Source: a virus
Taxonomy: Duplodnaviria > Caudoviricetes
Length of the DNA stretch: 64,000 nt
Reading direction: 5' to 3' (one strand)
Virus record (IMG/VR): IMGVR_UViG_3300032218_003059
Location: 1 to 64,000 of that record
In this document: piece by piece, positions 19,501 to 59,938 of the stretch
Layout of the letters: every line of letters starts with the position of its first letter
Numbering within the stretch: position 1 is the stretch's first letter
The notes under the pieces: generated by a model
What the model saw: only the letters and a program-made list of their open reading frames with translations
The model's database searches: none
What the model was told of the DNA's origin: nothing
Program-made: the position numbers and the translations under genes

Positions 19501-19600
19501 CGCTACACCAGGATTGAAGCTTCGTGCACAATGGTCATCTGCAACTCTCATGAAGAGAGCAGCAAATAACTGGGTGCTTCTCGGCGACTTGATGGCGTAA
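16502..19600 (+). CDS. Long tail fibre protein with Mtd N-terminal-like domain
   Basis: RIQVRRGTASQWTSANPTLAAGEMGVESDT N-terminus; repeated KAPLASPTFTG modules; C-terminal WVLLGDL domain. Confidence 0.8.
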   Translation: MATVRIQVRRGTASQWTSANPTLAAGEMGVESDTNLFKFGNGSTAWASLAYANNSDVAIAEISQDAINSALSVGSGLTKTYDDGANTIVIAVADSYFTELAQDAVNNAFVPGDGIAKSYNDASNTITVSVVDSYITELAQDSVNTAIIAGDGIAKVYNDAANTLTLDADIVASGGLKIDNTKLTVDTDVVVTKLAEQTMSSKTLTNPKINGGVAVTVSGAQINYLTGLTKNINISYADVLNDANDYTDSAIGTLGNTVTSGYIPLAQLGQVDGVATLNSIGKVPMSQISLIDPALTGNATAENLTISGDLVFNGTATTINSTNLNITDPLVYLAKDNPANSRDLGIVSSFTSGGTYQHTGIVRDHTANKWVFFKGVTDEPTTTVNLAQGSLDALAVGALTATSLDLGSVSNTEIGYLDGVTSPIQTQFNAKAPLASPTFTGVVTLPSQTVTSAMIADGTISTGDLADAAVTANKLASDAVSTVKILDSNVTTAKIADLAVVAGKIADGAVVAGKYGAGSIVTTDLADGSVTSAKIANGAIANIDIDAAAAIDWTKLAISSTVSATELGYVDGVTSAIQTQIDTKLAKAGGEMTGDLTLRGNPTTNNMAATKNYVDSLVSAETTNRGTAITAESTARGTAITTAVSTHAALTASHGVTGAIVGTDNTQTLTNKTLTSPVINTPTGITKSDVGLANVDNTTDANKPVSSATTTALALKANLAGPTFTGTVSGITKSMVGLGSVDNTADADKPLSTADIAALALKAPLASPALTGVPTAPTAAAANNTTQVATTAYADRAASNAAAALVASAPAALDTLNELATALGNDASFSTTMTNALAAKAPLASPTFTGTVTLPSGTVTSGMILDGTILDADINASAAIAQSKISGLSTSLGLKANLADPTFTGTVTVGAAGVAFTDGTQTKEGVPSRTTILSKTADYTLSALTERDNMIEMNSGSATVLYVPTDASVNYPIGTTIDILRVGSGAVSVAAVTSGTTTINATPGLKLRAQWSSATLMKRAANNWVLLGDLMA

Positions 19601-19621: not shown

Positions 19622-21004
19622 ATGGCAAATAAAAAGATAGGTATTAAATCATCAGCCCAGGACAACTTCCTAGAGCCTAAAGCTGTAACAGGTTTTACAG
19701 CAACAGCAGTCAACGGTGGAGCATTTGGAAATGGGTCTGTGTCACTTTCATGGACCCTTCCATCTGATTCACCAGCCGCAACTCTTTATAGCGTTACTTC
19801 AAGTCCCGCTACAACTACACAGACAACATCAGACACAAGCCTTTCTTTTACAGGATTATCTGGAGGAACAGCTTATACATTTACAATAGTTCCTTCAAAT
19901 GCTGTTGGAAATGGTCTATCTACAACATCAGCATCAGCAACTCCAACAACAATTCCCTCAGCTCCAACAAATGTTGCAGTAACATCAACATCTGCTGGTG
20001 TAGATAACTTGACATGGACAGCATCTAATGACGGAGGATCAGGAATAACAGGATACTCTTGGGCTTCATCTGATTCAAAGGCTGGTTCTGTTGGAAACGT
20101 AACTTCCGCAAATATTAATCAAGAACAAGGAACTGCACAGACATACACAGTTTATGCAACAAATGCTAATGGTAACTCATTAACATCAGCAGCATCAAAC
20201 TCTGTTACTACTTTCTTCTCACCACCTTCCTTCTTCTCGCCTCCAGGGTTCTTCTCGCCCCCAGGGTTCTTTGCGCCTCCAGGGTTCTTCGCACCTCCAG
20301 GGTTCTTCTCGCCTCCAGGGTTCTTTGCACCTCCAGGGTTCTTCTCTCCTCCAGGGTTCTTCGCACCTCCAGGGTTCTTCGCACCTCCAGGGTTCTTCTC
20401 GCCTCCAGGGTTCTTCTCGCCTCCAGGGTTCTTCGCACCACCATCATTCTTTACTCCACCATACTTCTGCATTGCTGAAAATACACCAGTATTAACAGAC
20501 GGCGGATATAAGATGGCAAAAGATATACAGGTTGGAGATAACTTAATGACAGTTAAGTTTGACGATATGCCAGTTGGAGATCTTGAATGTATACTGGGAG
20601 AAATTACAGATAACTGTAATACAATATTCAAATCATGGTCATCAGAAACTTTGGACGGGCTAGAATACGTTTCATCTAAAGTAACAGATATATTTGAAAG
20701 CATAGATAAAGATATAGTTATATTTAATAATGATATTACTACAGCCTTATCAACAGTTGAGCTAGCATTAGTTTATACTAATGGTAAGCATTCATTAAAA
20801 GAAGCTTCTGAAATATCTGTAGGAGATTATATTGTAACTTACAATGGTCAAATTAATAATACTCTAGTAACATCTGTTGAATTAGGAGACAAAGCAAATG
20901 CCTACTTATTCTACAGAGAAGGTAATAATATGATTATTACTGGTGGACCAATGGTCGTAAATGGCTGTCCACTATCATCAATGTCCTCATTGATTTCTAA
21001 CTAA
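19622..21004 (+). CDS. FN3-domain virion protein with FFxPPx repeat and C-terminal Hint-like domain
   Basis: Two FN3-like domains (VSLSWT..YTFTIVPSNAVG; DNLTWT..YTVYATNANG), 14 hexapeptide repeats, then CIAENTPVLT...IQVGD Hint block. Confidence 0.8.
   Translation: MANKKIGIKSSAQDNFLEPKAVTGFTATAVNGGAFGNGSVSLSWTLPSDSPAATLYSVTSSPATTTQTTSDTSLSFTGLSGGTAYTFTIVPSNAVGNGLSTTSASATPTTIPSAPTNVAVTSTSAGVDNLTWTASNDGGSGITGYSWASSDSKAGSVGNVTSANINQEQGTAQTYTVYATNANGNSLTSAASNSVTTFFSPPSFFSPPGFFSPPGFFAPPGFFAPPGFFSPPGFFAPPGFFSPPGFFAPPGFFAPPGFFSPPGFFSPPGFFAPPSFFTPPYFCIAENTPVLTDGGYKMAKDIQVGDNLMTVKFDDMPVGDLECILGEITDNCNTIFKSWSSETLDGLEYVSSKVTDIFESIDKDIVIFNNDITTALSTVELALVYTNGKHSLKEASEISVGDYIVTYNGQINNTLVTSVELGDKANAYLFYREGNNMIITGGPMVVNGCPLSSMSSLISN
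20213..20464 (+). repeat. 14 x 18-bp in-frame tandem repeat encoding FF[S/A/T]PP[G/S/Y]
   Basis: Directly counted; unit TTCTTC(T/G)CNCCTCCAGGG. Confidence 0.95.
20468..20962 (+). other. Degenerate Hint (intein/Hedgehog-like) domain
   Basis: Starts with Cys; block A CIAENTPV...IQVGD, ISVGDYI; block B TVEL lacks His; ends GPMVVN instead of VHN. Confidence 0.65.
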
Positions 21005-21024: not shown

Positions 21025-21666
21025 ATGTACACAAGCAAGCAAGAGATATTCCCTGGAATGTGGAAATATTCAAATGTTTTTACTGAAGACTTAGATCTAG
21101 TAAATAGAATTGAATATGAAACATCCCAGGGAAATGTCTTTTGGGAAAGAGCTTCAGTTGGACTTGATGCTGTAGAAAATAGCTACAGATTCTGCTCCGT
21201 TTTAAAAATGGATGAATTTGGAGAATCACACCCTTTATATAAAGATATATATCAAGTACAAAAAGAATGTGTAGATGACTATAATTATATGCATAATTTA
21301 GATATAAATTTTTGGGAATGGACTAACATAGTAAAATATGTTCCAAATGAATATTTTAATGAGCATTCGGATCATGGATGGTCTTATGTATCTACAGTAT
21401 CTCTCGTTGGATATCCAAATGATGATTATACTGGTGGCTCTTTATATTTCCCAAAATTAAATTTAAATGTTGTTCCAGAAGCTGGCGACTTATTAATATT
21501 TCCCTCAAGCTACCTATTTTCTCATGTAGCTATGCCAGTTATAACGGGAACAAAGTATTGTTTTGCAACCATGCTTGACTATAATGATGATGCTCATTCT
21601 AGAGAGTATGATGAGTATATAGTAAGAAAATATAATAATGAAAAGAGAGCCTATAATGTTACCTAA
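21025..21666 (+). CDS. 2OG-Fe(II) oxygenase (P4H-like)
   Basis: HSDHG, YPNDDYTGG, FPSSYLFSH, TKY; TGC-TATAGT ends 6 nt upstream (leaderless-type). Confidence 0.9.
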   Translation: MYTSKQEIFPGMWKYSNVFTEDLDLVNRIEYETSQGNVFWERASVGLDAVENSYRFCSVLKMDEFGESHPLYKDIYQVQKECVDDYNYMHNLDINFWEWTNIVKYVPNEYFNEHSDHGWSYVSTVSLVGYPNDDYTGGSLYFPKLNLNVVPEAGDLLIFPSSYLFSHVAMPVITGTKYCFATMLDYNDDAHSREYDEYIVRKYNNEKRAYNVT

Positions 21667-22357
21667 TGCAGAGTTTATATACCCAGGAATTTTAGTATAC
21701 AGAGACGTTTATACAAAGGACATGGACCTTGTTAATAGACTTGAAGAGTCTTTATCAAGCGATCCAAATGCTGAGGGTATAGGGTACTCTGATGCACCAC
21801 ATGCAAAATATAAATGGAAGCAGGCTACAACTGGATATAGCAATAATGATTTAAAATACAGAGATTGCTATGATTTTAAAATTAAAAAGAACATATTTGA
21901 TGACACTGGTAAAAGCAAAGAGCAACTTAAGCTAGAAAAAATATGGGAAGATGCAAAGCAGGCACAGGTAGGTCCAGTTCAAGACTACTCTCAGATGTTT
22001 AACCTTGCCCCACTAACATATTGGGAATCTTTTAACTTTGTTAAATATGGTAAAGATCAGCACTTTCAAGTACATTCCGATCATGGCTATTCTTATATTT
22101 CAGTATTATCTTCAGTAGGATATCCTAATGACGACTATGAAGGCGGAGAATTATTTTTTGATAAGATAGGCGTAACAATAAAACCAAAAGCAGGCGATTT
22201 ATATCTGTTTCCATCTTCTTATATATATTCTCATGCAGCACTTCCAGTAAAAAGCGGAGTAAAATATTCAATAGTAACGATGCTTGATTATCATGAAGCT
22301 CCACATACACCTGACTATCGTGAGATAGAAGAAAGGTATAAGTTAATTCGTGATTAA
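21638..22357 (+). CDS. 2OG-Fe(II) oxygenase (P4H-like)
   Basis: HSDHG, YPNDDYEGGEL, FPSSYIYSH, VKY. Confidence 0.9.
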   Translation: MKREPIMLPNAEFIYPGILVYRDVYTKDMDLVNRLEESLSSDPNAEGIGYSDAPHAKYKWKQATTGYSNNDLKYRDCYDFKIKKNIFDDTGKSKEQLKLEKIWEDAKQAQVGPVQDYSQMFNLAPLTYWESFNFVKYGKDQHFQVHSDHGYSYISVLSSVGYPNDDYEGGELFFDKIGVTIKPKAGDLYLFPSSYIYSHAALPVKSGVKYSIVTMLDYHEAPHTPDYREIEERYKLIRD

Positions 22358-23069
22358 TTTTGAAGTATATAAAGATGACGGACCAGTTGCTAACATAGAG
22401 CCCCTTTCAGCAAAAAGAGATTGGATGGAGGCTACATTTGATAAGCATGCATATAGATGCTTACCCGTAACTTTAACCAATCAGTTAGGCTGGGCCATAT
22501 CTTTTCCAGAAGATATAACATTTATGTGGGACGGACAAATATCTACTTCTGGAGAGCATATTAAAGTTTTAGCTGGAGAAAAGTATATTCAAACAGGAAG
22601 AGGGCAAGCTACCGTAAGCTTTGAAACAGGTCTAGTTTTTAGAACACCAGAAAACTATAGCCTTTTAACATACAATGTTCCAAACATGTTTATGGAAGGA
22701 GTTTCTCCATATACTACAATAATAAGCTCATCCTTTTTTGAAGGACCACTTCCAGTTGCTTGGAAAATCACAAAAGCATTTGTACCAATAACAATAAAAG
22801 CTAATCAGCCAGTAGCTGCTGTATTTCCAATATCTCTTGCTAATATTCAAGGATCTACGTTAATAATAAAAAATATAAAAGATTTGATTAGGGTTAAAAG
22901 AGATATTCCTTTAGATTTAGATGAAGCAGTAAAGTCAGCTGCAGATGCCGCCGCTAATGGCGGGTGGACAGATTATTACAGAAATGCAATAGACTATATG
23001 GGAAACAAACTTGGAAGACATGAAGCTAAGTCTTTAAAATTATTAGTTAAAGATGAGTCAAATGAATAA
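22350..23069 (+). CDS. DUF6065-like protein
   Basis: RDWM...AYRCLPVTLTNQLGW..P...WDG signature recalled for DUF6065; GTG start. Confidence 0.65.
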   Translation: MINFEVYKDDGPVANIEPLSAKRDWMEATFDKHAYRCLPVTLTNQLGWAISFPEDITFMWDGQISTSGEHIKVLAGEKYIQTGRGQATVSFETGLVFRTPENYSLLTYNVPNMFMEGVSPYTTIISSSFFEGPLPVAWKITKAFVPITIKANQPVAAVFPISLANIQGSTLIIKNIKDLIRVKRDIPLDLDEAVKSAADAAANGGWTDYYRNAIDYMGNKLGRHEAKSLKLLVKDESNE

Positions 23070-23775
23070 GATTAGTTTTTGGTCAAATAGGCCAGCGAAT
23101 AACGATACCACAATCCCCGTAACTGCTAAAAAAGTTATGCCTCAGTGGTTTTTAGATGCTAAAAAATATTGGAAAAATGAAGAAGGAAAAGAATACATAA
23201 TTGCAGAAGGAGAAAAAGGTCTTGGGTTCAAGGCTTGTCCAGCTCTTTTAGATTTATTTAATTGTGGATACATGTTAGTTACTCCATGTGATGTTGTAGT
23301 TTATATGCAAGAAGGAAAAAAATTAATTGTTTCTTCACCAGAATTTCCAGATTTTTGTGAGGCTAGACCTTATATGAATGAATTTAGTTATCCTTATGGA
23401 TACGCAACAGATTCATTTCATTGGTTTCCAAGCTGGGGATTTGATTTGCCAAAAGGGTATAGCGCACTTGTTGTTCACCCTTTAAATAGATACGATTTAC
23501 CATTTTTAACAACAAACGGTATAATTGATAGTGATAAGTATGGTTCACCAGGATTGATGCCATTTTTTATTAGAGAAGATTTTACAGGGGTGATCCCAAA
23601 AGGAACACCGTTTGCACAAATAATTCCTTTTAAAAGAGAAGACTGGAAAGCCGAATATGATTTTATTGAATTAAACGATATGATTAAAAAGCACGAAGAG
23701 ACTGTAAATAAATATAGAGTCCCCTTTGGTGGGATTTATAAAAGATATACTTGGGTTCAAAAGAAGTACGAATAG
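23053..23775 (+). CDS. Conserved phage hypothetical protein, DUF6065-related
   Basis: KACPA...GYML.TPCD, PKGYS..HPLNR.DLPF, GTPFAQIIPFKREDW. Confidence 0.6.
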   Translation: MSQMNKISFWSNRPANNDTTIPVTAKKVMPQWFLDAKKYWKNEEGKEYIIAEGEKGLGFKACPALLDLFNCGYMLVTPCDVVVYMQEGKKLIVSSPEFPDFCEARPYMNEFSYPYGYATDSFHWFPSWGFDLPKGYSALVVHPLNRYDLPFLTTNGIIDSDKYGSPGLMPFFIREDFTGVIPKGTPFAQIIPFKREDWKAEYDFIELNDMIKKHEETVNKYRVPFGGIYKRYTWVQKKYE

Positions 23776-23784
23776 GGGATAAAA

Positions 23785-24477
23785 ATGGATAGAGAATTAA
23801 CTTACAAAGAAGACATTAGAACATCTAGAGAATCAATAACTCCTTCAGGTTATTTTGGCGGATGCAAAGAAAATATTGTAGAAATAGAAAACTTTTTAAC
23901 CGAAGAAGAGTGTGACTTCCTTATACTTTTTGCCAAGGGGAACACAGTTTGGGATGTAACTAAATCGGCAGTTAATGAAAATGGCAATGTTATTTATGAT
24001 GCAGATGTGTGGAAAGATCGTGTTGCAACAAGAAAGTCTTTAGACGAGTCAAATCCTTTAGTTTCTCCAATGCTAGAAAAAATAATTGAAAGATTAAAGC
24101 CAGTAATAGAAAAACATTTTAATGTTGAAGTAAATCCAACTGGTCCATGTATAGTTCGATGGCCAGAAGGAAGTATGCAATGGCCACATGCAGATAAAGA
24201 GCTTCATGAGGGACCAGATGCTGGAACTCCAAATAACTTTCCGTGGTATGACCTAGGAACGGTATTTTATTTAAACGATGATTACGAAGGCGGAAGATTG
24301 CATTTTCCAAGACAAGAAATTGCTTTTAAACCAAAAAAGAGAGCCGTATATTTTTTCCCAGGAGATTTAAATTACATCCATGGAGTAGACGTCATAACAA
24401 GTGGCGTCAGATACACCTCACCTTGGTTCTGGACAATAACAAAGCTAAATGAAAAGGAAGTTACTGTAAATGAATAA
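23785..24477 (+). CDS. 2OG-Fe(II) oxygenase (P4H-like)
   Basis: HAD, YLNDDYEGG, IHGV, VRY. Confidence 0.9.
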   Translation: MDRELTYKEDIRTSRESITPSGYFGGCKENIVEIENFLTEEECDFLILFAKGNTVWDVTKSAVNENGNVIYDADVWKDRVATRKSLDESNPLVSPMLEKIIERLKPVIEKHFNVEVNPTGPCIVRWPEGSMQWPHADKELHEGPDAGTPNNFPWYDLGTVFYLNDDYEGGRLHFPRQEIAFKPKKRAVYFFPGDLNYIHGVDVITSGVRYTSPWFWTITKLNEKEVTVNE

Positions 24478-25258
24478 AATAGAATTACACCCTAAAGTAA
24501 TGGTCTATAGAGACTTAATAAAAAATGTGCCAAAAGTTTTTAAAGCTATAACTGATTCACATGATAATTCAGGAGAAAATTATTTTAATCCATGGACAGA
24601 CTGGAGTAAGTTTGGCATTTATGCAAGTGTCAAGGGGGACCACGAGATAGTTGGTAGACTAGGATCAGATCCAGTATTTGATAATGAATATGAAATTGTT
24701 CAAGAAGTAGAAAATGCTTACAAAGTAGCAATTGATGATTATGTAAAAACTTATGACATTCAATTACCAGAAAATAGCAGATTAAATTCTTCTTCATTTT
24801 GCAGATACCACGAGGGCGTAGATGTGCTTGAGAATGATTTAACTATGCAATATCATACTGACTACAAGCAGTCAGAAAAAGAAATGCCAGGCAATCACTT
24901 CTTTATTACATGCACTACTTACATAAACGATAATTACACTGGCGGAGAAATAGAGTTTTATATTGATGGAAAGTTTATAACACATAAGCCAGTTGCTGGA
25001 GATATTATGGTATTCCCATCAGTAGAGCCTTACTACCATGGAGTAAAAACAATTACTTCTGGATATAAGTATTTAATTAGAAATTTTATAACATATAGAT
25101 ATCCAGGATCTAAAGAGTGGCTAGAAAACCAAATAGAATTTGGGGCTGTTCGCTGGGCAAAGATGGAAGCAGAAAGAATTGAAAAAGCTAGATTTAATGG
25201 AAACATTATTATAAAAAATGGTCAGGTTGTATCTGGGCCAGGTATGGAGTCAATGTAA
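24470..25258 (+). CDS. 2OG-Fe(II) oxygenase (P4H-like)
   Basis: HTD, YINDNYTGGEI, YHGV, KYLIR. Confidence 0.9.
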   Translation: MNKIELHPKVMVYRDLIKNVPKVFKAITDSHDNSGENYFNPWTDWSKFGIYASVKGDHEIVGRLGSDPVFDNEYEIVQEVENAYKVAIDDYVKTYDIQLPENSRLNSSSFCRYHEGVDVLENDLTMQYHTDYKQSEKEMPGNHFFITCTTYINDNYTGGEIEFYIDGKFITHKPVAGDIMVFPSVEPYYHGVKTITSGYKYLIRNFITYRYPGSKEWLENQIEFGAVRWAKMEAERIEKARFNGNIIIKNGQVVSGPGMESM

Positions 25259-25260
25259 TT

Positions 25261-25971
25261 ATGGACATAGTTAAACTAAAAGAAGATGCATTTATTGTAA
25301 ATAACTTTTTAACTTCAGAAGAGTGCGAGTCTGTTATAAAGTACTTTGATGCCATAACTGCAGCTGGTGTTTTAGATTGGAATCAGATATCTTTCTTTGG
25401 TTCTTTTGCAATGGGATATTGGCCAACAGATGAAAACCTTCTTCAGTTTAATTTACCAGCAAATTATTTTAATTTAGTTAAGAAAAAAATTCAAGATGCT
25501 GGAGAGATGTTGTTTGAAAGAGAGTTTAACGAGGTTAGCTTTCACGCACAGAAATGGGTAGACGGAGCATTTGCAGCTTTTCACTCAGATAATTCTGACG
25601 AACACGGAAATCCAAATGCTTTTCATAAAAGTAAATATGCTGCGTTTATATATTTAAACGACAACTTTGATGGAGGTCTTCTTAACTTCAAGCATGATGA
25701 TGTTACTGTAAAGCCCGCTATTGGCATGCTAGCCTTTTTTAAAGGTGGATATATGAACGAGCATGAAGTAACCACAGTAAAGGGCGGAGATAGATATACA
25801 ATAGGATCTTTTTGGGATAATGCAGATGAAGTATATGATGAAGAAACTATTAAAAAATGGGAAGATGAATTAAAGCAAACAAGAGCTCTTCAAGAAGAGC
25901 AATATAAAGAATGGGACGAGAACGTAAAACAAGGTCAAATTCCTCAATATAAGGGGAAGTATGATTATTAA
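25261..25971 (+). CDS. 2OG-Fe(II) oxygenase (P4H-like)
   Basis: HSD, YLNDNFDGG, EHEV, DRY. Confidence 0.9.
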   Translation: MDIVKLKEDAFIVNNFLTSEECESVIKYFDAITAAGVLDWNQISFFGSFAMGYWPTDENLLQFNLPANYFNLVKKKIQDAGEMLFEREFNEVSFHAQKWVDGAFAAFHSDNSDEHGNPNAFHKSKYAAFIYLNDNFDGGLLNFKHDDVTVKPAIGMLAFFKGGYMNEHEVTTVKGGDRYTIGSFWDNADEVYDEETIKKWEDELKQTRALQEEQYKEWDENVKQGQIPQYKGKYDY

Positions 25972-26548
25972 TAAGTTACATGATAATATCTATTACTATG
26001 AAAGAGCAATCAATAATCCTAAAGAGCTTTTAAAGCATCTAGATAAAAATGTTTGGGAGAGGTGGATGTCTTCCGATGGTGGAGAATTTTATGGCCACTC
26101 CCAAGGAGCTATGTTTGGAAGCGAAGAAATAGGATCCACAATAAATGAAAAAAATGGAATGATATTAAAGGAGATTTTTAACTCCGCTATTTTTGCTGCA
26201 AACAATTATTCAGATGCAACAGGAATTGATATTGGTTATCTTCCACCATTCTTTGCATTTAAAAAATATAATACTGGTATTGGAATGGGCCCACATGTTG
26301 ATAAATATAGTGGAAAAGATAAAAAGTCTACGCTATCAATGGTCATATATTTAAATGACGATTCCGAAGGCGGAGAGATAGAGTTTGCTAATCAAGGAAT
26401 ATTATTAAAGCCAAAGGCTGGCAGCATAATTGTATTCCCTCCTGGGAAACCCTACATGCATGAGTCTAAAAAAGTAACAGAGGGAAATAAATATATGATC
26501 CCGCTATTCTTTTTTAAAGATAAAAAGCCAAGAGCCAGCAAAAAATGA
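25961..26548 (+). CDS. 2OG-Fe(II) oxygenase (P4H-like)
   Basis: HVD, YLNDDSEGGEI, MHES, NKY. Confidence 0.88.
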   Translation: MIINKLHDNIYYYERAINNPKELLKHLDKNVWERWMSSDGGEFYGHSQGAMFGSEEIGSTINEKNGMILKEIFNSAIFAANNYSDATGIDIGYLPPFFAFKKYNTGIGMGPHVDKYSGKDKKSTLSMVIYLNDDSEGGEIEFANQGILLKPKAGSIIVFPPGKPYMHESKKVTEGNKYMIPLFFFKDKKPRASKK

Positions 26549-50714: not shown

Positions 50715-52835
50715 ATGGCTTATCAAGATCTACTAAAAGATACGACTGCTCCAGATCCTTCAGATAAGGATGCGTTTCTTGTAACCGTAGTAGATTTAAA
50801 TCCAGACAAAGTTTATCCATTACAATTCAGGTGGAAGTATAAAGATGGTTCGTATGGACAAGACTGGTCCCCCGCATATGATATCTACACTGGAGACGAG
50901 CAAATTGTTTTAAAGCCATACTTCCCCATAACAAATGTTGACGGAGGATCAGGGTACATATCAGTAACTTGGGACGGCAGAGATTCAAACCTAGTTGATA
51001 TGGAATGGTTTGATAGAGTAGACATTTTAATTAAAGATCATTCATCAAATGCAAAAGCAGTATTTGGAGATGGAACAAATGCAGTAGCATTTTTCAAATC
51101 AAAAGGAACCAAAACAATAACAGCCCCAGCTGGGAAATATATAGTAAAGCTTAGAACTGTTGGAAAATCAGGTAAGTTTTCTGATTCAGTTCCAGTAGGT
51201 GTAAATGATTATTTAGTTACAGTTACATCTGGACTAACTATTGAAGATCCAACTCTTCCAGTAGGACTTAGCGTATCAACTGTACCATTTGGAGTAGCAG
51301 TAAATTGGAGTGGTGCATATAACGCATCTTCATTCTTTGGATTTCAATCTATTAATATCTATGCATCGGCTACAGATTTTGGGGCAACAACAACTTCAAC
51401 AAATATAACAAACTCAAAATTAGTTGGAACAATGTCAGTAAATGACAGCGCAAACAAAATAACAGTAGGACTTGATGCATTAAGAACAGCTCTTGGATTG
51501 ACAGCAAATAAAGACTGCTATACAACAAACACTTATTTTTATTATATAGCAACAAATTTAAATGGACTTAAATATAAAGTTAGTGGAGCAGAAGTTTATA
51601 CTAGAATTAGTGCTACTCCAATCAAAGCAACTCAAGCAAACTTTATTGATTTAGAAAATGGAACAATTTCAATTGAGAACCTAGTTGCTGGAAATGGATC
51701 ATTTACTTCATGGCTTAGAACAGGAGTTGCTGGTGCAGCAAGAATTGAATTATCTTCTACAACAGTTCCAGCAAATGATGCGGGAGGATATTTAGTTGTT
51801 CCTGGTTTAACTGTATATAACAGCGCAGGAAATCCAGAGTTTCAAGCAGATTTAAATGGTAATGTTAGCTTAGGTGGTTATACAAAAACAACACTAGATG
51901 CAATAAAAACAAAAGGCGATACAACCGCAGCAACTTTAATTTTAGTTTCAAATGCCGCACAAACTGCATCCGACCTTGCGGGTACAAAAAATAAAGTGTT
52001 TGTACAAGCCTCTGTACCATCCGCAGTAGCAGCAGGAGATGTTTGGCTTAATACATATGCTGGAACAGTAGGTGGATATTTAGGAAACTATACTACTTAT
52101 GTAGCAACCGCCGTAGGGACTGGCTCCTGGGTGCCAGCATCCGTAGCTGATGCAAAAGCCGCACTTGGAAAAATTATAGGTTTTAATTCAAATGGAGATT
52201 TATTTAGTAAGGATCTTCAATTAGAATCTGGCAAAGGATCTATATATTCAAATAAATCTGCATATTCAAATGATGCAGACAGCGGATGGTATCTAGGATA
52301 TATTCCAAATACTACATATGCAGCACTAGCCCTTGGCTCAAGTTCAACTGGTTTAATTAAATGGGATCCAAATGCTGGGCTAAGGTTAACTGGTGACATT
52401 GCTTCTACTGCAAATATTTCTGGAGGTACAGTTAAAGCAACTGGCAACTACGGAGCAATACGGCTATCAAGTTCAACAGAATCAACAATAGATTTTTTAA
52501 ATACAAGCTCAACGGTAACTGGACAATTGAGATCATATGATAATGGAAATTCTCTTGTTTTGCAATACGGAACTGGAAGGTATAACGGATTTGGATCTAA
52601 ACCAGCTAGCACTGGAGTTATAGATTTATCTGCTTCAACAACAAGCGTTGGGCACGTTAATTCTTCAGGTGTTTTTAGCTCTGGATTTATATCATCACAA
52701 AATGGTCAAACTGTTTTGGCTGGATACTGGACAGCTCCAGATACATCGTTATCAACAACTTCTTTAAAAAATATTATTGCACAATCAACTCAACCGTCGG
52801 TGATGTTAACTGGAACAGTATGGCTACAGGTGTAA
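50715..52835 (+). CDS. Tail-tip / central fibre protein with FN3-like domains
   Basis: YPLQFRW, beta-rich G/S/T composition, GDVWLNT module. Confidence 0.65.
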   Translation: MAYQDLLKDTTAPDPSDKDAFLVTVVDLNPDKVYPLQFRWKYKDGSYGQDWSPAYDIYTGDEQIVLKPYFPITNVDGGSGYISVTWDGRDSNLVDMEWFDRVDILIKDHSSNAKAVFGDGTNAVAFFKSKGTKTITAPAGKYIVKLRTVGKSGKFSDSVPVGVNDYLVTVTSGLTIEDPTLPVGLSVSTVPFGVAVNWSGAYNASSFFGFQSINIYASATDFGATTTSTNITNSKLVGTMSVNDSANKITVGLDALRTALGLTANKDCYTTNTYFYYIATNLNGLKYKVSGAEVYTRISATPIKATQANFIDLENGTISIENLVAGNGSFTSWLRTGVAGAARIELSSTTVPANDAGGYLVVPGLTVYNSAGNPEFQADLNGNVSLGGYTKTTLDAIKTKGDTTAATLILVSNAAQTASDLAGTKNKVFVQASVPSAVAAGDVWLNTYAGTVGGYLGNYTTYVATAVGTGSWVPASVADAKAALGKIIGFNSNGDLFSKDLQLESGKGSIYSNKSAYSNDADSGWYLGYIPNTTYAALALGSSSTGLIKWDPNAGLRLTGDIASTANISGGTVKATGNYGAIRLSSSTESTIDFLNTSSTVTGQLRSYDNGNSLVLQYGTGRYNGFGSKPASTGVIDLSASTTSVGHVNSSGVFSSGFISSQNGQTVLAGYWTAPDTSLSTTSLKNIIAQSTQPSVMLTGTVWLQV

Positions 52836-52838
52836 TAA

Positions 52839-55800
52839 ATGGCCAACAATTCAAGCATATACAATGGATCATCCTGGGTTAAATTAAAAGCAATAAAAAT
52901 TTATAATGGCGGATGGCAGACAGTTAAAAAAGGTTTTATTTATACTGGAACAGCATGGGCTAGATTTTGGCCATCAGCTGGACCATATACAACAACATCT
53001 CCAAGTATACGAATAGACTCATATACTGGAAAATCTGTTGGCTCTGTAATTCAAATGGGCCCAAGACTAAGCAGCATAGAAGACAATACTCCGCCACTTA
53101 CAATTCCAGATGGATTATCTGGTGCTACATATTTGTGGGGGCAAGATGGTGTTTGGGCAAATAATACTAATGCTGTAATTAATAGATATTTTTATTACAA
53201 TTCATCAAATGATTTTACTAATGCATCTGCAATAAATGGTGTAACTGATAAGCTATCAAATACTAGCGGAACAATAGATTCATATGACGCAAAATATTTA
53301 TGGTATTACGTTACACAAACTACAGATGCAATGGGAGAGGACCAAAGCGAGTCATTGTATTTAATTAAACAAAGGCCAGCACCACCAATATCTTTTTTAA
53401 TAGATACCTCTACAGATCCAACAGTTGGCAAACCAGTAACAGTTAACTATTCTTTAAACACGGATTGGTATAGAAATGCAAAACTTAGTTTAAGCTATAT
53501 AGAATGGTTTGCAGAAACTACATTAAATCCAACATACTCATCTCCAGCCCAAACAGATTATTTGTCTGCAAATAGCGGTTCAAAAACATTTACTCCAACA
53601 GAAGCAGAAAAAGATAAGTATATATTTGCAAGAATAACAATAGCAAATTCATACTCAGATTATTATGGAAGTTCTTATGTAAGAACAGCGGAAGACTATA
53701 ATATTAAAAAGGTTGGCGCAGCGCAGCTCGCACCTAACTCAGGAACTGTATCAGTATCTCCATCAACTGGAACCGCTGGAACTACAACATATATTCCTAT
53801 ACCAGCAGGATGGAAGGGTCCTCCTGATATATTTACCTACACCTATTCATGGAGAATATTAAAGCCAAACTTACAATATCAAGAAGTAGGAACAGGATCG
53901 ACATTTGCTCCAGCGTTAAACTTCAATACTGCGTATCCAAACTTTGAAACTCGCTTATTTTGGACAGTATCAAATGGAATAGCTCCAGATGCAACTGGTA
54001 GTACAGGATTTACTGTAAATAATGCATTAATTACAAGAACACTTTCGTTTAGCGCTAATGGAGGCACAGGTGCTCCTGCAGCACAAACTGGTACAGACAA
54101 TGGATCTGGAGCAACCATTACAATAACAAACTCAATTCCAACACGAGACGGGTACAGATTTTTATATTGGAATACTTCTCCATCAGACATGGGAGGAACA
54201 ACATATGCACCTGGAAATAGTATTACTCTTAATACAGATGTAACTCTTTACGCAATGTGGAGTCTAATTTTAGTTGCTCCATACGGCGGAAGCACATCAG
54301 TTGATCCAACTTCTGGAGTATCTGGAACTCTATTTAGAGCAAGTACAAGCGGCTGGTCTGGCACTCCAAATTCATTTACCTATTCTTTTTCCTGGCAAGG
54401 CCTGTCAACATCAAACTACAATTATGTAGAACTAGGAACAGGATCTACATTTTATTCTTTTGGAATAAATCTAAACACCTACCTTGCATTTAGAGTTGTT
54501 GCAACTGCAACAAATGCCGCTGGATCTAGCTCAGCTCCTGCAGATTTTTCAATAACAATTCCATCATATACTAGAACACTTTCCTTTAGCGCAAACGGTG
54601 GAGTAAGCGCACCAGCAGCACAAACTGGCACAGACAATGGATCTGGAGCAACCATTACAATTACTACATCCACTCCAACTCGGTCTGGGTACAGATTTTT
54701 ATATTGGAATACTTCTCCATCAGACATGGGAGGAACAACATATAGTCCTGGAAATAATATTACTATAAGTTCAGATGTGACTCTATATGCAATATGGAGC
54801 CTGGTCCTTGTTCCGCCAAGTGGTGGGAGCACATCAGTTTCTCCAACTTCTGGAACCGTTGGTACAACATATACAGTAAGCACCTCTGGTTGGAGTGGAA
54901 CGCCAAATTCATTTACTTATGCATATTCCTGGCAAGGTTTATCGACTACGGGATACAATTATGTACAACTAGGAACAGGATCTACATTTAATTCTTCTGG
55001 AATAAACGTGGCAAACTACCTTGATTTCAGGGTTGTAGCAACAATTACAAATGCTGCTGGTTCTGTTCAAGATACAGCATACTTCTCAGTAACAGCTGCT
55101 ATAAATACAATTGCAACAATTGCTACACAGAATACAATTGCAACAATTGCTACACAGAATACAATTGCAACTCAGAATACAATTGCTACACAGAATACAA
55201 TTGCAACTCAAAATACAATTGCTACACAGAATACAATTGCTACACAGAATACAATTGCTACAATTGCTACACAGAATACAATTGCTACAATTGCTACACA
55301 GAACACAATTGCTACAATTGCTACACAGAACACAATTGCTACAATTGCTACAATTGCTACACAGAATACAATTGCAACTCAAAATACAATTGCTACACAG
55401 AATACAATTGCTACAATTGCTACACAGAATACAATTGCTACAATTGCAACTCAGAATACAATTGCTACAGGTGGAGGAGGTTGCTTTGTTTACGGCACTG
55501 AAATTCAAATGGCAGACGGAAGCTGGAAGAATATGGAAGACCTATATATTGGAGATCAAGTTATGGGTATAGATATTCCTACAGTCCCTTATGAGGATAG
55601 TATGGGATTTGACTATATTCCAACATGGACATCTACAGATGTTTCTGGTACAATAAAATCTGTAGCTACTGTTATAAATGTAGATAACAGATCATTTGAT
55701 AGCTATTATTTAATTAATAATCAAGTAAAGGTTACATATGAGCATAACGTATTGGTTCAACAAGATGGAATATGGAAATTTATCATGGTTGAAGATATTA

Positions 55801-55970
55801 ATGTTGGAGACAATATAATGAACGAAAACCTTGAAATAGTTCCAGTTTTATCAAAAGAATTAATAAATGAAACAGTAAATACTACATCAATAAATATTGA
55901 CGATATTGATGTTTATACCGTAAGGGGCATGGTTGCCCACAATATAACAAGTAAGGCGGGGGCCAATTGA
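52839..55970 (+). CDS. Fibre/adhesin-like virion protein: Ig-like and InlB B-repeat-like domains, (X-X-Thr)41 repeat, C-terminal Hint domain
   Basis: Two RTLSFSANGG...PTR.GYRFLYWNT...TLYA.W (Listeria-Bacteroides repeat-like) modules; IAT/QNT repeat; GGGG-CFVYGT...TYEH...VAHN. Confidence 0.85.
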   Translation: MANNSSIYNGSSWVKLKAIKIYNGGWQTVKKGFIYTGTAWARFWPSAGPYTTTSPSIRIDSYTGKSVGSVIQMGPRLSSIEDNTPPLTIPDGLSGATYLWGQDGVWANNTNAVINRYFYYNSSNDFTNASAINGVTDKLSNTSGTIDSYDAKYLWYYVTQTTDAMGEDQSESLYLIKQRPAPPISFLIDTSTDPTVGKPVTVNYSLNTDWYRNAKLSLSYIEWFAETTLNPTYSSPAQTDYLSANSGSKTFTPTEAEKDKYIFARITIANSYSDYYGSSYVRTAEDYNIKKVGAAQLAPNSGTVSVSPSTGTAGTTTYIPIPAGWKGPPDIFTYTYSWRILKPNLQYQEVGTGSTFAPALNFNTAYPNFETRLFWTVSNGIAPDATGSTGFTVNNALITRTLSFSANGGTGAPAAQTGTDNGSGATITITNSIPTRDGYRFLYWNTSPSDMGGTTYAPGNSITLNTDVTLYAMWSLILVAPYGGSTSVDPTSGVSGTLFRASTSGWSGTPNSFTYSFSWQGLSTSNYNYVELGTGSTFYSFGINLNTYLAFRVVATATNAAGSSSAPADFSITIPSYTRTLSFSANGGVSAPAAQTGTDNGSGATITITTSTPTRSGYRFLYWNTSPSDMGGTTYSPGNNITISSDVTLYAIWSLVLVPPSGGSTSVSPTSGTVGTTYTVSTSGWSGTPNSFTYAYSWQGLSTTGYNYVQLGTGSTFNSSGINVANYLDFRVVATITNAAGSVQDTAYFSVTAAINTIATIATQNTIATIATQNTIATQNTIATQNTIATQNTIATQNTIATQNTIATIATQNTIATIATQNTIATIATQNTIATIATIATQNTIATQNTIATQNTIATIATQNTIATIATQNTIATGGGGCFVYGTEIQMADGSWKNMEDLYIGDQVMGIDIPTVPYEDSMGFDYIPTWTSTDVSGTIKSVATVINVDNRSFDSYYLINNQVKVTYEHNVLVQQDGIWKFIMVEDINVGDNIMNENLEIVPVLSKELINETVNTTSINIDDIDVYTVRGMVAHNITSKAGAN
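54036..55100 (+). repeat. Tandem duplication, period 537 bp (179 aa)
   Basis: AGAACACTTTC..TTTAGCGC.AA at 54036 and 54573, with long near-identical stretches. Confidence 0.85.
55101..55469 (+). repeat. 41 in-frame 9-bp units encoding X-X-Thr (25 IAT, 15 QNT, 1 INT)
   Basis: Directly counted; 369 bp. Confidence 0.95.
55482..55943 (+). other. Hint (intein/Hedgehog-like) domain, 154 aa
   Basis: Cys1 CFVYGTEIQMADG, block B TYEH, INVGD, terminal VAHN; +1 residue is Ile followed by a short tail. Confidence 0.88.
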
Positions 55971-56566
55971 ATTCGCCCAGTAATATGATAAAACAAGTAC
56001 TTAGCGATAAATTAGTAATATATCAAAATGCTATACCAAACCCAAAAGAACTTATAAAAGAGTTTGAAAACACTTTAACAGAATTTAATCAGTCATGGAA
56101 AAAATCAGTTATAAATGATTTTGAGTATAATAGCGATCTAAGATCGTGCACAATATTCTCACTTTTTGTTAATGACTCTGATGATGCAGAATGGGCTAAA
56201 GCAAAAGTAAGCTTAAATCAAAAAATTAATAAATTTGTTTCCGAAGCATTTTTAGACTATTGCAAAACTTATGAGTACAAGGTAAAAAATAAAGAGCCTT
56301 GGGAAATATGTAGATATGAAGAAACTCAAAAACTAGTTTGGCATACAGACGATGGGCCAACACACCCATGCGATGTATCTTTTGTAATTTATTTTAATGA
56401 TGATTACGAGGGCGGAGAAATTCAATTTAAAGAGCATTTAGATGGTTATCCTTATAAGCCACCAGCTGGCAGCATAATAATATTTCCATCAAAATCAACA
56501 CACATTCATAGGGTGATACCAATTACAAAAGGAATAAAGTATGCTGCAATTAGCTTCGCCAAATAA
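55967..56566 (+). CDS. 2OG-Fe(II) oxygenase (P4H-like)
   Basis: HTDDG, YFNDDYEGGEI, IHRV, IKY; true start may be ATG 55985. Confidence 0.9.
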   Translation: MNSPSNMIKQVLSDKLVIYQNAIPNPKELIKEFENTLTEFNQSWKKSVINDFEYNSDLRSCTIFSLFVNDSDDAEWAKAKVSLNQKINKFVSEAFLDYCKTYEYKVKNKEPWEICRYEETQKLVWHTDDGPTHPCDVSFVIYFNDDYEGGEIQFKEHLDGYPYKPPAGSIIIFPSKSTHIHRVIPITKGIKYAAISFAK

Positions 56567-57143
56567 AATATACGAAGGAATTTTGGTTTACAATAATTCT
56601 AACGGAGCTGATATTCTTTTACAAAGCATTGAAGATCTTTTAACAAACTCTACTGATGCAAGATGGAGTCCTTCTAGAATTATAAAGTCTAAAGAAGAAG
56701 GTTATGTCGTAGATAAATCTATAAGAGATAATTTATATTTTTGGCTAAACTACAGTTTAGATTATGAAAAAGAAACAAAGTCAAAAATGATGAAGATTAG
56801 CTCTATGATAGACACTGCAATTATTCCATCATTAAATGACTATCAAAATAAATACAGTGTTCAAATTAAAACCAGAGATCCATATGAGCTTTTAAAGTAC
56901 TATGAAAACAATCATCTATCCTCTCATACAGATGATGGCGGAGCCAACCACTCTAGAGTATCTTTGTTATTTTATATAAACGATGATTACGAGGGCGGAG
57001 ACATAGTGTTTGATTATTTAAATATATCATATTCTCCTAATATAGGAGACATAATAATATTCCCTTCTTCGTACATATATAGACATCACGTAAATAAGGT
57101 TACGAAAGGTATCCGTTACTGCATTGCGGATTTTATGGCATAA
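56541..57143 (+). CDS. 2OG-Fe(II) oxygenase (P4H-like)
   Basis: HTDDG, YINDDYEGGDI, FPSSYIYRH, IRY. Confidence 0.9.
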   Translation: MLQLASPNKIYEGILVYNNSNGADILLQSIEDLLTNSTDARWSPSRIIKSKEEGYVVDKSIRDNLYFWLNYSLDYEKETKSKMMKISSMIDTAIIPSLNDYQNKYSVQIKTRDPYELLKYYENNHLSSHTDDGGANHSRVSLLFYINDDYEGGDIVFDYLNISYSPNIGDIIIFPSSYIYRHHVNKVTKGIRYCIADFMA

Positions 57144-57682
57144 TGAAAAGTAGAAAGATTTTCCCAGGCGTATTTGCCTATTCTGATTTTTTTGATGATC
57201 CTATGGAAATTTTTAGCAATGTGGAAGACATGGGTGGGTGGCACCCAGCAGAAGCTGGTGCATATGGCGAAGGCCCTTCTATAGTCGAGGAGAGAAGACG
57301 TGGGCTAATGTATAATCTACAAAGAGATCCCAATGTAAAAAAAATAACTGCAATGTCATTAGAGGCAATTAAACATTATAAATCTTTTTATGGATTAAAT
57401 TTAAAAAATCTAGAGGGCTGGTGCCTACTAAAGTATAGAGAAGGTGATTTTTTTTCTGCACATACAGATGACTCTCACGACTTCCCTAGACAAATATCTA
57501 TGGTTTACTACGCAAATGATGACTACGAAGGAGGTGAACTAGAGTTTATATTTTTTAATAATTTAAAGATTAAGCCAAACGCTGGCGAGCTAGTTATATT
57601 TCCATCTAACTACTTATTTGTTCATAAGGTAAATCCAATAACCAAGGGTGAAAAATATGCTGCAACATCGTTTGCCTATTGA
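57143..57682 (+). CDS. 2OG-Fe(II) oxygenase (P4H-like)
   Basis: HTDDS, YANDDYEGGEL, FPSNYLFVH, EKY. Confidence 0.9.
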   Translation: MKSRKIFPGVFAYSDFFDDPMEIFSNVEDMGGWHPAEAGAYGEGPSIVEERRRGLMYNLQRDPNVKKITAMSLEAIKHYKSFYGLNLKNLEGWCLLKYREGDFFSAHTDDSHDFPRQISMVYYANDDYEGGELEFIFFNNLKIKPNAGELVIFPSNYLFVHKVNPITKGEKYAATSFAY

Positions 57683-58640
57683 TAAAAAAATATTTATCTC
57701 AATACCTTCATATGAAGATGAGCTATTGTTAGAAACAATTAATGACGCATTATTAAAGGCAAAGAATGCTTCAAGGCTTACATTTGGCGTTGCCCTGCAA
57801 TATAAAAAAATTGATAAACCAGACCTATCTTTTTTAGGAAATCAATTAAAATTAATAGAATATGATGTTGACAGCAGGCCAGGGATAATCGAGATAAGAA
57901 AAAATATAGCGGATTTAATTGAAGACGAGGAGTACTTTCTTGGCATAGATGCTCACACCCTTTTTGCCCAAAACTGGGATCAACAATATATAGATGATCA
58001 CCAGATGCTAATTGAAAAAAATGGTAATAGTAAAGTTTGCATTGCATCTAGAATTAATGGATCTGAGTCTGATTTTAAAAAAGATTTATATTCAGAATAT
58101 TTAGATACTAGATGGATTTTAGATATAAACAAAAATAACGTATATGAAACTTGGTGGGACTGGCCAGTAGATGTCAAAAATAGGCTTTATGATACTCCAG
58201 AGTATGTAAAAAGATACTTTGTTTCTGCAAACAACTGGTTTACAACTTCAGAGTTTTTTATAAACAACCTGTTTTGGTGTTTCAATAAAACGGTATATGA
58301 AGAACCACAGATATCCCTATCATTATTTTTAAATAACTACGATGTATACCTGCCAACAAGCAAGGTGCTTGTCATAGCTAATCCAAAATCACAGACAACA
58401 AATAGGGAAAATAAAATTCATTGGCAAAACCCTAGTCATAAAAATTGGAATCACGACAGCATAGAGGTAGTCAGAGAAGTATTTAAGTTATTCTATACTG
58501 GCAAAAGCAATATATTTAGTCTGAATAGGCCAGATGATATATATAAATGGTGGAATGCAATCGGCTTATACGAAAAAGCCAAAGAGGTATCCGATAGGCT
58601 TAAAACTCTGCATTTAGATAGGACATACTACTTAGACTAG
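57648..58640 (+). CDS. GT-A glycosyltransferase resembling Skp1-hydroxyproline / polypeptide GlcNAc transferases (GT60-like)
   Basis: IFISIPSYED...LTFGVALQ and YFLGIDAHTLFAQNWD (DxH) match recalled Gnt1-family motifs; start may be TTG 57672. Confidence 0.72.
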   Translation: MKNMLQHRLPIDKKIFISIPSYEDELLLETINDALLKAKNASRLTFGVALQYKKIDKPDLSFLGNQLKLIEYDVDSRPGIIEIRKNIADLIEDEEYFLGIDAHTLFAQNWDQQYIDDHQMLIEKNGNSKVCIASRINGSESDFKKDLYSEYLDTRWILDINKNNVYETWWDWPVDVKNRLYDTPEYVKRYFVSANNWFTTSEFFINNLFWCFNKTVYEEPQISLSLFLNNYDVYLPTSKVLVIANPKSQTTNRENKIHWQNPSHKNWNHDSIEVVREVFKLFYTGKSNIFSLNRPDDIYKWWNAIGLYEKAKEVSDRLKTLHLDRTYYLD

Positions 58641-59871: not shown

Positions 59872-59910
59872 TTGACAACATAAATCAATATGTTACAATT
59901 ATATTGTAAC
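59872..59910 (+). promoter_or_regulatory. Promoter with overlapping palindromic operator
   Basis: TTGACA-16 nt-TACAAT (TG extension); perfect inverted repeat GTTACAAT-TAT-ATTGTAAC at 59892-59910. Confidence 0.65.
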
Positions 59911-59913
59911 CAC

Positions 59914-59938
59914 AAAGTCACGTACCCGTGACTTTTTT
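59914..59938 (+). terminator. Intrinsic terminator
   Basis: AAAGTCACG-TACC-CGTGACTTT followed by TTT. Confidence 0.75.

Follow-up and report, generated by a model that had tools for sequence, protein, structure and literature searches.

We describe here a putative fibre-tailoring cassette of an uncultured tailed phage (Caudoviricetes), whose last enzyme is a glycosyltransferase (GT) of family GT60 encoded beside three 2-oxoglutarate (2OG)-dependent oxygenases. The DNA analysed, hereafter the window, is the first 64 kb (positions 1 to 64,000) of the 86,241-bp virus record IMGVR_UViG_3300032218_003059 (IMG/VR; 80% complete as estimated by CheckV), and has a G+C content of ~35%. In our favoured explanation a block of five translationally coupled genes would end with the GT, its products being, in order, a fibre protein that has an (IAT/QNT)41 repeat followed by a Hint domain, the oxygenases OxA, OxB and OxC, and the GT60-like enzyme. 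Late in infection, and in the host cytoplasm, the GT would use a UDP-N-acetylhexosamine, by family analogy that of N-acetylglucosamine (GlcNAc), and, being Mn2+-dependent through D98-x-H100, would O-glycosylate the upstream-encoded fibre protein within its repeat tract; the oxygenases, which have the fold of prolyl 4-hydroxylases (P4Hs), would act on this tract too, and a virion appendage would thereby gain a densely decorated stalk resembling a mucin or an antifreeze glycoprotein. We give about an even chance to the proposal that this is a fibre-tailoring cassette glycosylating the upstream repeat and, as far as the genes tell, the cassette probably sugar-coats the fibre.

The family of the transferase is clear. 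The plus-strand open reading frame (ORF) at 57648-58640 would encode 330 aa if begun at GTG; the likely start is the ATG at 57657, because a 100%-identical database protein and a 70%-identical orthologue (locus L145) are both 327 aa, and an AAGGGTG stretch lies ~8 nt 5' of this ATG. The protein so defined (57657..58640, plus strand) matches the Pfam model PF11397 ('GlcNAc') with 50.3 bits (E 3.2e-13; gathering cut-off 21 bits) over model positions 2-48 and 94-268 of 352, and the match was again over the cut-off in a six-frame search of the genome. PF11397 is carried by all 13 of 13 close homologues, and PHROGs assigns the protein to phrog_24687, a glycosyltransferase family. An earlier note on this DNA, made from its letters and ORF translations, had proposed a relative of the Skp1-modifying transferase Gnt1 from three motifs and had named the PF11397/GT60 profile search as its check; the search bore the proposal out at the level of the family, and the motifs proved to be the conserved family core. 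They are IFISIPSYED (residues 12-21 in the 327-aa numbering, window 57690-57719), GVALQ (residues 44-48) and IDAH followed by WD (residues 97-100 and 107-108), and they stand, as the note had it, directly after three P4H-like genes.

Conservation of these residues extends well beyond the close relatives. In our alignment A1 (13 homologues at 41-70% identity) K11, I12, F13, S15, I16, P17, Y19, E20, D21, D98, H100, W107 and D108 are invariant, and D98, H100, W107 and D108 stay (nearly) invariant in alignment A3, whose 65 sequences go down to ~22% identity; judged by this conservation, the motifs are not a product of chance. Enzymes of GT27 and GT60 typically have a DxH motif for metal and UDP-sugar, and D98-A-H100 (57948..57956, plus strand; invariant in A1 and at least 90% conserved in A3) is presumably its counterpart here. 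The motif is intact, and retaining alpha-GlcNAc transfer from UDP-GlcNAc to a polypeptide hydroxyl is the family trait that the enzyme would share.

Structure prediction points in the same direction. The AlphaFold2 model built from the 13-sequence alignment (predicted local distance difference test score, pLDDT, 81.8) has a GT-A fold with the N-terminal beta-strand motif of the family, and its 27 best solved neighbours are all GT27 polypeptide N-acetylgalactosamine (GalNAc)-transferases (VIA-align Z 17.5-19.1 over 255-283 residues). The polypeptide GalNAc-transferases ppGalNAc-T2, T10 and T12 come out on top in both Foldseek and VIA (Foldseek E ~3e-9; Z 18-19), followed in VIA by RmlT, B4GALNT1 and TarP (Z 16-17). 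The likeness to GT27 is one of fold alone: phmmer and profile searches of the PDB, solved GT27 enzymes included, gave no sequence match, PF11397 is the sole Pfam match in the 327 aa, leaving no C-terminal ricin-type lectin domain, and the model aligns only to the catalytic domains of the ppGalNAc-Ts. GT60 enzymes likewise differ from GT27 in consisting of a catalytic domain without the ricin-type lectin domain (PMC8724618). On profile, fold and domain content, we regard the GT as a true member of PF11397/GT60.

The three genes that precede it are OxA (55967..56566), OxB (56541..57143) and OxC (57143..57682), all on the plus strand and all encoding 2OG-Fe(II) oxygenases of PF13640 (48, 45 and 60.5 bits, respectively). 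All of them keep the HxD...H triad (H107, D109 and H161, invariant) and have K or R where the motif G-x-[KR]-Y binds 2OG; in OxB the invariant residues are H, D, H and R. The Foldseek top matches of the OxC model (pLDDT 89), with template-modelling (TM) scores of 0.71-0.79, are PHD2, the Dictyostelium prolyl hydroxylase 6t8m (rank 3, 24% identity), the P4H of P. putida (4iw3), vCPH of PBCV-1 (5c5t) and the Chlamydomonas P4H (2jig). Because OxC folds nearest to prolyl hydroxylases, the label 'P4H-like' that the earlier note gave to these genes is fair at the level of the fold; sequence matches to solved structures are weak, and involve PiuC, the B. anthracis P4H and, for OxA and OxC, LH3 and Mimivirus L230.

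The candidate substrate is the product of the gene immediately upstream of OxA (52839..55970, plus strand), a 1043-aa fibre or appendage protein with Flg_new (Listeria-Bacteroides repeat; Pfam E 3e-23) and Ig-like domains, a Thr-tripeptide repeat and a C-terminal Hint domain. The repeat, (X-X-Thr)41 at 55101..55469 (plus strand; 55104-55469 in Tandem Repeats Finder), consists by script count of 25 IAT, 15 QNT and 1 INT units, and has Thr at each third residue and no Pro at all; the 46 Pro of the protein lie elsewhere in it, and a protein with FFxPPG repeats is encoded further upstream. The Hint domain (55482..55967, plus strand) begins at Cys882, right after a GGGG, and is recognised by the Pfam models Hom_end_hint, Hint and Intein_splicing, with Hint-type matches at residues 873-997.

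The block sits within the late tail operon, as the earlier note had also stated. We draw this from three features: (i) upstream lie genes for a portal, a protease, a tape measure of 2522 aa, minor tail proteins and a tail protein, and after these the genes for two large fibre-like proteins (50715-52835 and 52839-55970), the second being the candidate substrate; (ii) every gene junction from 52839 to 58640 overlaps, by 1 to 26 nt, the overlap of the OxC stop and the GT start being 26 nt; (iii) the sole strong terminator-like hairpin, and the strongest of the region (59914..59935, plus strand; a 9-bp stem and a T run), closes the operon behind a small fibre gene of gp53-like type. A near-consensus promoter (11/12 match at 59872-59899) lies beside the hairpin.

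Relatives of the cassette are found in other uncultured phages. The order OxA-OxB-OxC-GT recurs in L145 (GT 70% identical) and L006 (GT 43%), and a second arrangement, with OxB-OxC, an 83-aa gene, a 267-287-aa oxygenase and the GT, is seen in phages with WhiB, CHAP and SPP1-portal genes (L001-5, L143/144, L009/10 and L011), where a JmjC/cupin-like gene follows the GT in L001-5, L143, L009/10 and L011. In a maximum-likelihood tree of 35 oxygenases, OxA groups with its L006 orthologue (100/99; that of L145 was taken from its gene list), OxB with those of L006, L001, L004 and L009 (100/99) and OxC with its own orthologues (93/92). Since the orthologue clades exclude the other oxygenase paralogues of the phage, OxB, OxC and GT have been inherited together, and at least five phage lineages have this set of two oxygenases and the GT.

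The repeat protein belongs to this inheritance. An IAT-type repeat precedes the cassette at all loci of the GT clade with visible upstream DNA (the window, L145, L006, L001-5, L143/144 and L010) with the exception of L007/L008, which is also without neighbouring oxygenases. The L006 homologue of the fibre protein (1210 aa) has the same layout, with (TIN/TIA)n and Hint; the L145 contig begins within TIATQN...GGG|CFVYGT, and a GGG|CF[VA]YGT junction is common to the window, L006 and L145. The actinophage-like lineages encode, ~700 bp upstream of OxB, a 324-328-aa FN3 protein in which (IAT/IAI)n is followed by a Cys-rich tail, and the L143 and L010 contigs start within an Ile-Ala-Thr-type repeat. 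By trees and gene order, OxB, OxC and the GT are thus co-inherited with an Ile-Ala-Thr-type repeat protein across divergent phages. L070 shares this architecture, its repeat being (PFSFT)n and its GT a more distant one.

Several observations accompany these loci. OxA orthologues are confined to the three loci with Asn in the repeat (QNT or TIN), namely the window (55967-56566), L006 (8257-8838) and L145 (533-1114), and the four lineages with Ile/Ala/Thr-only repeats have no OxA and carry the 267-287-aa oxygenase, four also having the JmjC/cupin-like gene; this association is confounded by phylogeny, and rests on two phylogenetic groups. The module after the repeat varies: the window, L006 and L145 have a Hint domain that begins with Cys, the actinophage-like contigs and L070 a short Cys-rich tail, e.g. 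...CGPSGCCGG...C..C.. (window 55482-55967 and 20450-21004; L001 6092-7066; L004 6031-7017; L070 6363-7028, minus strand), and both might process or anchor the C-terminus of the repeat. Contigs L143, L144, L145 and L010 begin exactly within the IAT-type repeat, and many relatives are short contigs ending within it; the repeat breaks assemblies, and therefore cassettes and their substrates will often be separated in the databases. The cassette gave no blastn match in 50,697 phage records, tblastn of the GT and of P0024 recovered only jumbo Xanthomonas phages (22-23% identity, without oxygenases within 5 kb), a scan of IMG/VR with alignment A1 found nothing, and a scan of JGI metagenomes returned only three loci.

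Beyond the close relatives, a profile search of 1.84 billion representatives gave 2,937 relatives of the GT, and 12 of the top 150 are fusions of an oxygenase domain with one PF11397 domain or several, frequently with AhpC/TSA as well; the ESM Atlas includes a chlorophyte cluster with a PF11397-PF13640 fusion. More distant phage GTs (~30% identity) lie near oxygenases of other clades (L020, L014, L013, L070, L095 and L029). The linkage that the earlier note had seen in one genome is conserved across phage lineages, and the two domains are joined in bacterial and chlorophyte proteins. It is not a general rule, and the idea that every phage PF11397 GT is coupled to an oxygenase had to be dropped: among 80 other IMG/VR phage PF11397 loci, fetched by the motif DYFLQIDSH, an oxygenase lies within 1 kb in 3 and within 3 kb in 8, about as oxygenase density predicts. 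The pairing, as judged from these comparisons, is real and is conserved in some clades only. One of the fusions, a 2461-aa bacterial protein (L019 10001-17386) with several PF11397 domains, AhpC/TSA and two PF13640 domains, sits among chromosomal housekeeping genes (tRNA synthetases, Tat, SurE), and is a cellular counterpart of the phage cassette.

What does the GT glycosylate? In Dictyostelium and Toxoplasma, the prolyl 4-hydroxylase PhyA acts first on Skp1, a eukaryotic protein, and Gnt1 (CAZy GT60, PF11397) then follows. The earlier note had seen in the phage genes an analogue of this hydroxylate-then-glycosylate pathway, and several features agree: the GT belongs to the Pfam family of Gnt1, the fold of OxC resembles that of PHD and PhyA (6t8m), the genes link a hydroxylase with an enzyme of a GlcNAc-transferase family and, as we propose for the phage, the enzymes are cytoplasmic. 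Others differ: the phage has three oxygenases and not one, its conserved candidate substrate is a Thr repeat, free of Pro, on a virion fibre, the L007/L008 relative has the GT without the oxygenases, and the PF11397 match is modest (50 bits). Skp1 itself was not found in the 86-kb record, where the sole PF01466 match scores 16.3 bits (cut-off 22.3), and we place the GT outside Gnt1 sensu stricto. The GT60 enzyme, the P4H-fold oxygenases and their linkage stand, and the partner conserved with them is a repeat on which prolyl hydroxylation has nothing to act.

Membership of GT60 cannot decide the acceptor, because the family spans the hydroxyproline (Hyp)-specific Gnt1 (PMC6939170) and the Ser/Thr-directed polypeptide alpha-GlcNAc transferases of T. 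cruzi and Dictyostelium (PMC8724618, PMC6939170). A strict Skp1-type sequence, in which the GT glycosylates solely a hydroxyl created by one or more of the oxygenases, could act on Hyp outside the repeat, on Hyp in the FFxPPG protein, or on hydroxy-Ile or hydroxy-Asn within the repeat. It would fit with the OxC fold being nearest to prolyl hydroxylases, the Dictyostelium enzyme included, with the joint inheritance of OxB, OxC and GT, with the overlap of the OxC stop and the GT start, with the GT-oxygenase fusions of bacteria and Chlorophyta, and with the Hyp specificity of Gnt1 within GT60. The genomic data nevertheless make us consider it possible but rather unlikely. The prolyl-hydroxylase reading is inapplicable to the adjoining conserved repeat because this has no Pro, which makes the window a sharp test case. 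L007/L008, whose GT (67% identical) is the closest relative outside the immediate kin of the window, keeps the GT behind three small genes and a Ser/Thr/Tyr-rich fibre, and no oxygenase is seen near it in the 1.3-1.9 kb visible upstream and the 10 kb downstream. The scarcity of close oxygenases at the other phage PF11397 loci (the 3 of 80 mentioned above) points the same way, and for peptidyl Ile hydroxylation followed by glycosylation we know of no precedent. A sugar on an oxygenase-made hydroxyl, which the earlier note had thought possible, is not supported by the L007/L008 GT, the 80 loci or the Thr-directed members of GT60.

The Hyp of the distant PPG repeat, which that note had included among the acceptors, fares no better. 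The FFxPPG-repeat protein, with a Hint-like C-terminus (19622..21004, plus strand, as read from its translation), belongs to a separate cassette ~31-35 kb upstream, outside the conserved block, and is followed by six oxygenase-family ORFs of its own (21025-26548; four over the PF13640 cut-off, the first two assigned by the tree) and by no GT; the related loci showed no PPG repeat. In favour of a connection, the first two of these oxygenases form the sister clade of OxC, so that the paralogues closest to OxC sit right behind the FFxPPG gene. Further upstream, two large ORFs (window 14346-16037 and 16502-19600) have Ala/Thr-rich 19-residue repeats (period 57 in Tandem Repeats Finder), and are possibly additional appendage proteins.

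We lean, somewhat rather than strongly, towards the 41 native Thr hydroxyls over oxygenase-made hydroxyls as acceptor, because the Thr periodicity is perfect, Pro is absent, and the GT is kept without oxygenases in L007/L008. If Thr is the acceptor, the oxygenases would add a second, independent modification. A more specific proposal is that OxB and OxC, and OxA where Asn or Gln is present, hydroxylate the Ile (and the Asn/Gln) of the Pro-free tract and so are not prolyl hydroxylases, the GT glycosylating Thr, the new hydroxyls or both, to give a hyper-modified, antifreeze-glycoprotein-like stalk of the polyproline-II type. We hold this to be improbable as a whole; if true, the modification of the tract would be a chemistry, and the stalk a structural element, undescribed in any virus or bacterium.

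The acceptor might also not be a protein: a host wall polymer (as for the prophage enzyme TarP), a sugar chain or, in the manner of TET/JBP plus a glucosyltransferase, phage DNA that the oxygenases have hydroxylated could be glycosylated instead, the place of the gene in the tail operon being incidental. TarP, TarS and RmlT are structural neighbours of the GT at Z 16-17, its relatives often lie near carbamoyltransferase, other GT and methyltransferase genes, most phage PF11397 genes adjoin neither oxygenases nor repeat proteins, and OxB has a sub-threshold match to Tet_JBP (E 0.011). Against this, polypeptide GalNAc-transferases fill all of the first 27 places among the structural matches, the characterised members of GT60 act, to our knowledge, all on polypeptides, and the repeat protein is conserved upstream in at least five lineages; taking both sides, we find a non-protein acceptor quite improbable. 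As for DNA hypermodification by a TET/JBP-like enzyme and a GT, we rejected it: the oxygenases belong to PF13640 and have a prolyl-hydroxylase fold, and the Tet_JBP match is below the cut-off.

Glycosylation of the fibre repeat, which we favour, has its own weak points. We infer both the donor and the acceptor of the GT from its relatives and its neighbours, and synteny alone cannot show which protein is modified. Because RmlT and TarP reach Z 16-17, the margin of the fold over GT-A enzymes with non-protein acceptors is small. With 14 PF13640 matches in 86 kb, proximity of an oxygenase to the GT within this genome is weak evidence. L020 and L014 have a related GT, two oxygenases and DUF6065-like genes, and no repeat protein is visible there. 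The tight coupling and the domain fusions, finally, are more simply explained if an oxygenase makes the acceptor.

Known systems offer partial parallels to such a stalk. (i) The enzymes that initiate mucin-type glycosylation (the polypeptide alpha-GlcNAc-transferases of GT60, and GT27) share with the phage GT the family GT60, a nearest fold in GT27 (Z 18-19) and the DxH motif. The mucin enzymes act in the Golgi and the phage GT, as proposed, in the bacterial cytoplasm; moreover, the phage repeat is Ile-Ala-Thr/Gln-Asn-Thr rather than Pro/Ser/Thr-rich, and is coupled to oxygenases and Hint. (ii) The vertebrate antifreeze glycoproteins consist of (Ala-Ala-Thr)n with each Thr glycosylated, and the phage repeat is likewise a dense Thr array with a period of three. 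(iii) LH3, Mimivirus L230 and vCPH resemble the cassette, in the role proposed for it, in that a 2OG oxygenase of the same superfamily and a GT-A transferase tailor a repetitive structural protein; the GT domain of human LH3 is among the structural neighbours of the phage GT (Z 16), and vCPH is a top structural match of OxC. In contrast to the single bifunctional chain of LH3 and L230, the phage genes are separate, the GT family differs and the host is a bacterium, and, unlike the substrates of the collagen enzymes, neither Lys nor a Gly-X-Y collagen repeat lies beside the cassette. (iv) Mycobacteriophage virions are glycosylated by phage-encoded GTs, which decorate the C-termini of capsid and tail-tube proteins. 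There, as we propose here, GTs encoded by a phage act in the host cytoplasm on structural proteins of the phage itself; those GTs are of other families, work without oxygenases and a tripeptide-repeat substrate, and have been demonstrated experimentally.

We found no paper linking P4H-like enzymes of phages with a GT60/PF11397 enzyme, or describing this cassette; viral precedents for tailoring by a hydroxylase and a GT exist in Mimivirus L230 and, for the hydroxylase step, in PBCV-1 vCPH. If our explanation is correct, phages build densely O-glycosylated and also hydroxylated fibre stalks with a eukaryote-like GT60 enzyme and P4H-fold oxygenases, and chemistry of the mucin, antifreeze-glycoprotein or Skp1 type reaches bacterial viruses. 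It would also help to explain why 2OG oxygenases are so greatly expanded in the genomes of aquatic phages, and would provide a compact, co-expressible set of enzymes and substrate for studying the choice of acceptor by GT60, Thr or an enzyme-made hydroxyl.

Other genes recur around the PF11397 GTs. Between the fibre and the GT/oxygenase genes of many uncultured phages lies a set formed by a small protein of ~75-145 aa, an 80-107-aa Zn-ribbon protein and DUF6065-like proteins (L070 1-7833, minus strand; L029 3063-7863, minus strand; L001 7103-7754; L008 1152-1645), which in L070 is combined with the (PFSFT)n repeat. The Zn-ribbon is DUF6171-like (C..C...C..C.C), and this helper of the relatives' cassettes is absent from the genome of the phage described here. 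A carbamoyltransferase gene is repeatedly found a few kb from PF11397 GTs, although none was found in the window: it is of the NodU/CmcH type by Pfam in L009 (6288-7712), L143 (5890-7326) and L020 (282-1715), is annotated as such in the record of Xanthomonas phage Xoo-sp13 (L021 6390-8687), and was recognised by reading of the ORF in L095 (7692-9116, minus strand). This suggests that some PF11397 lineages may carry carbamoylated sugars.

Beyond the window, the same phage encodes a second PF11397 GT (82732-83847; 86 bits), 32% identical to the first over the N-terminal 105 residues. Its region (G000 81069-84958, equivalent to L146 9170-13059) contains genes for an AhpC/TSA peroxiredoxin, an AhpD-like CMD protein, an HNH endonuclease, a ferritin/Dps-like protein and a short-chain dehydrogenase; together with the PF11397-AhpC/TSA-PF13640 fusions, these neighbours hint that the many oxygenases may call for housekeeping of peroxide and iron.

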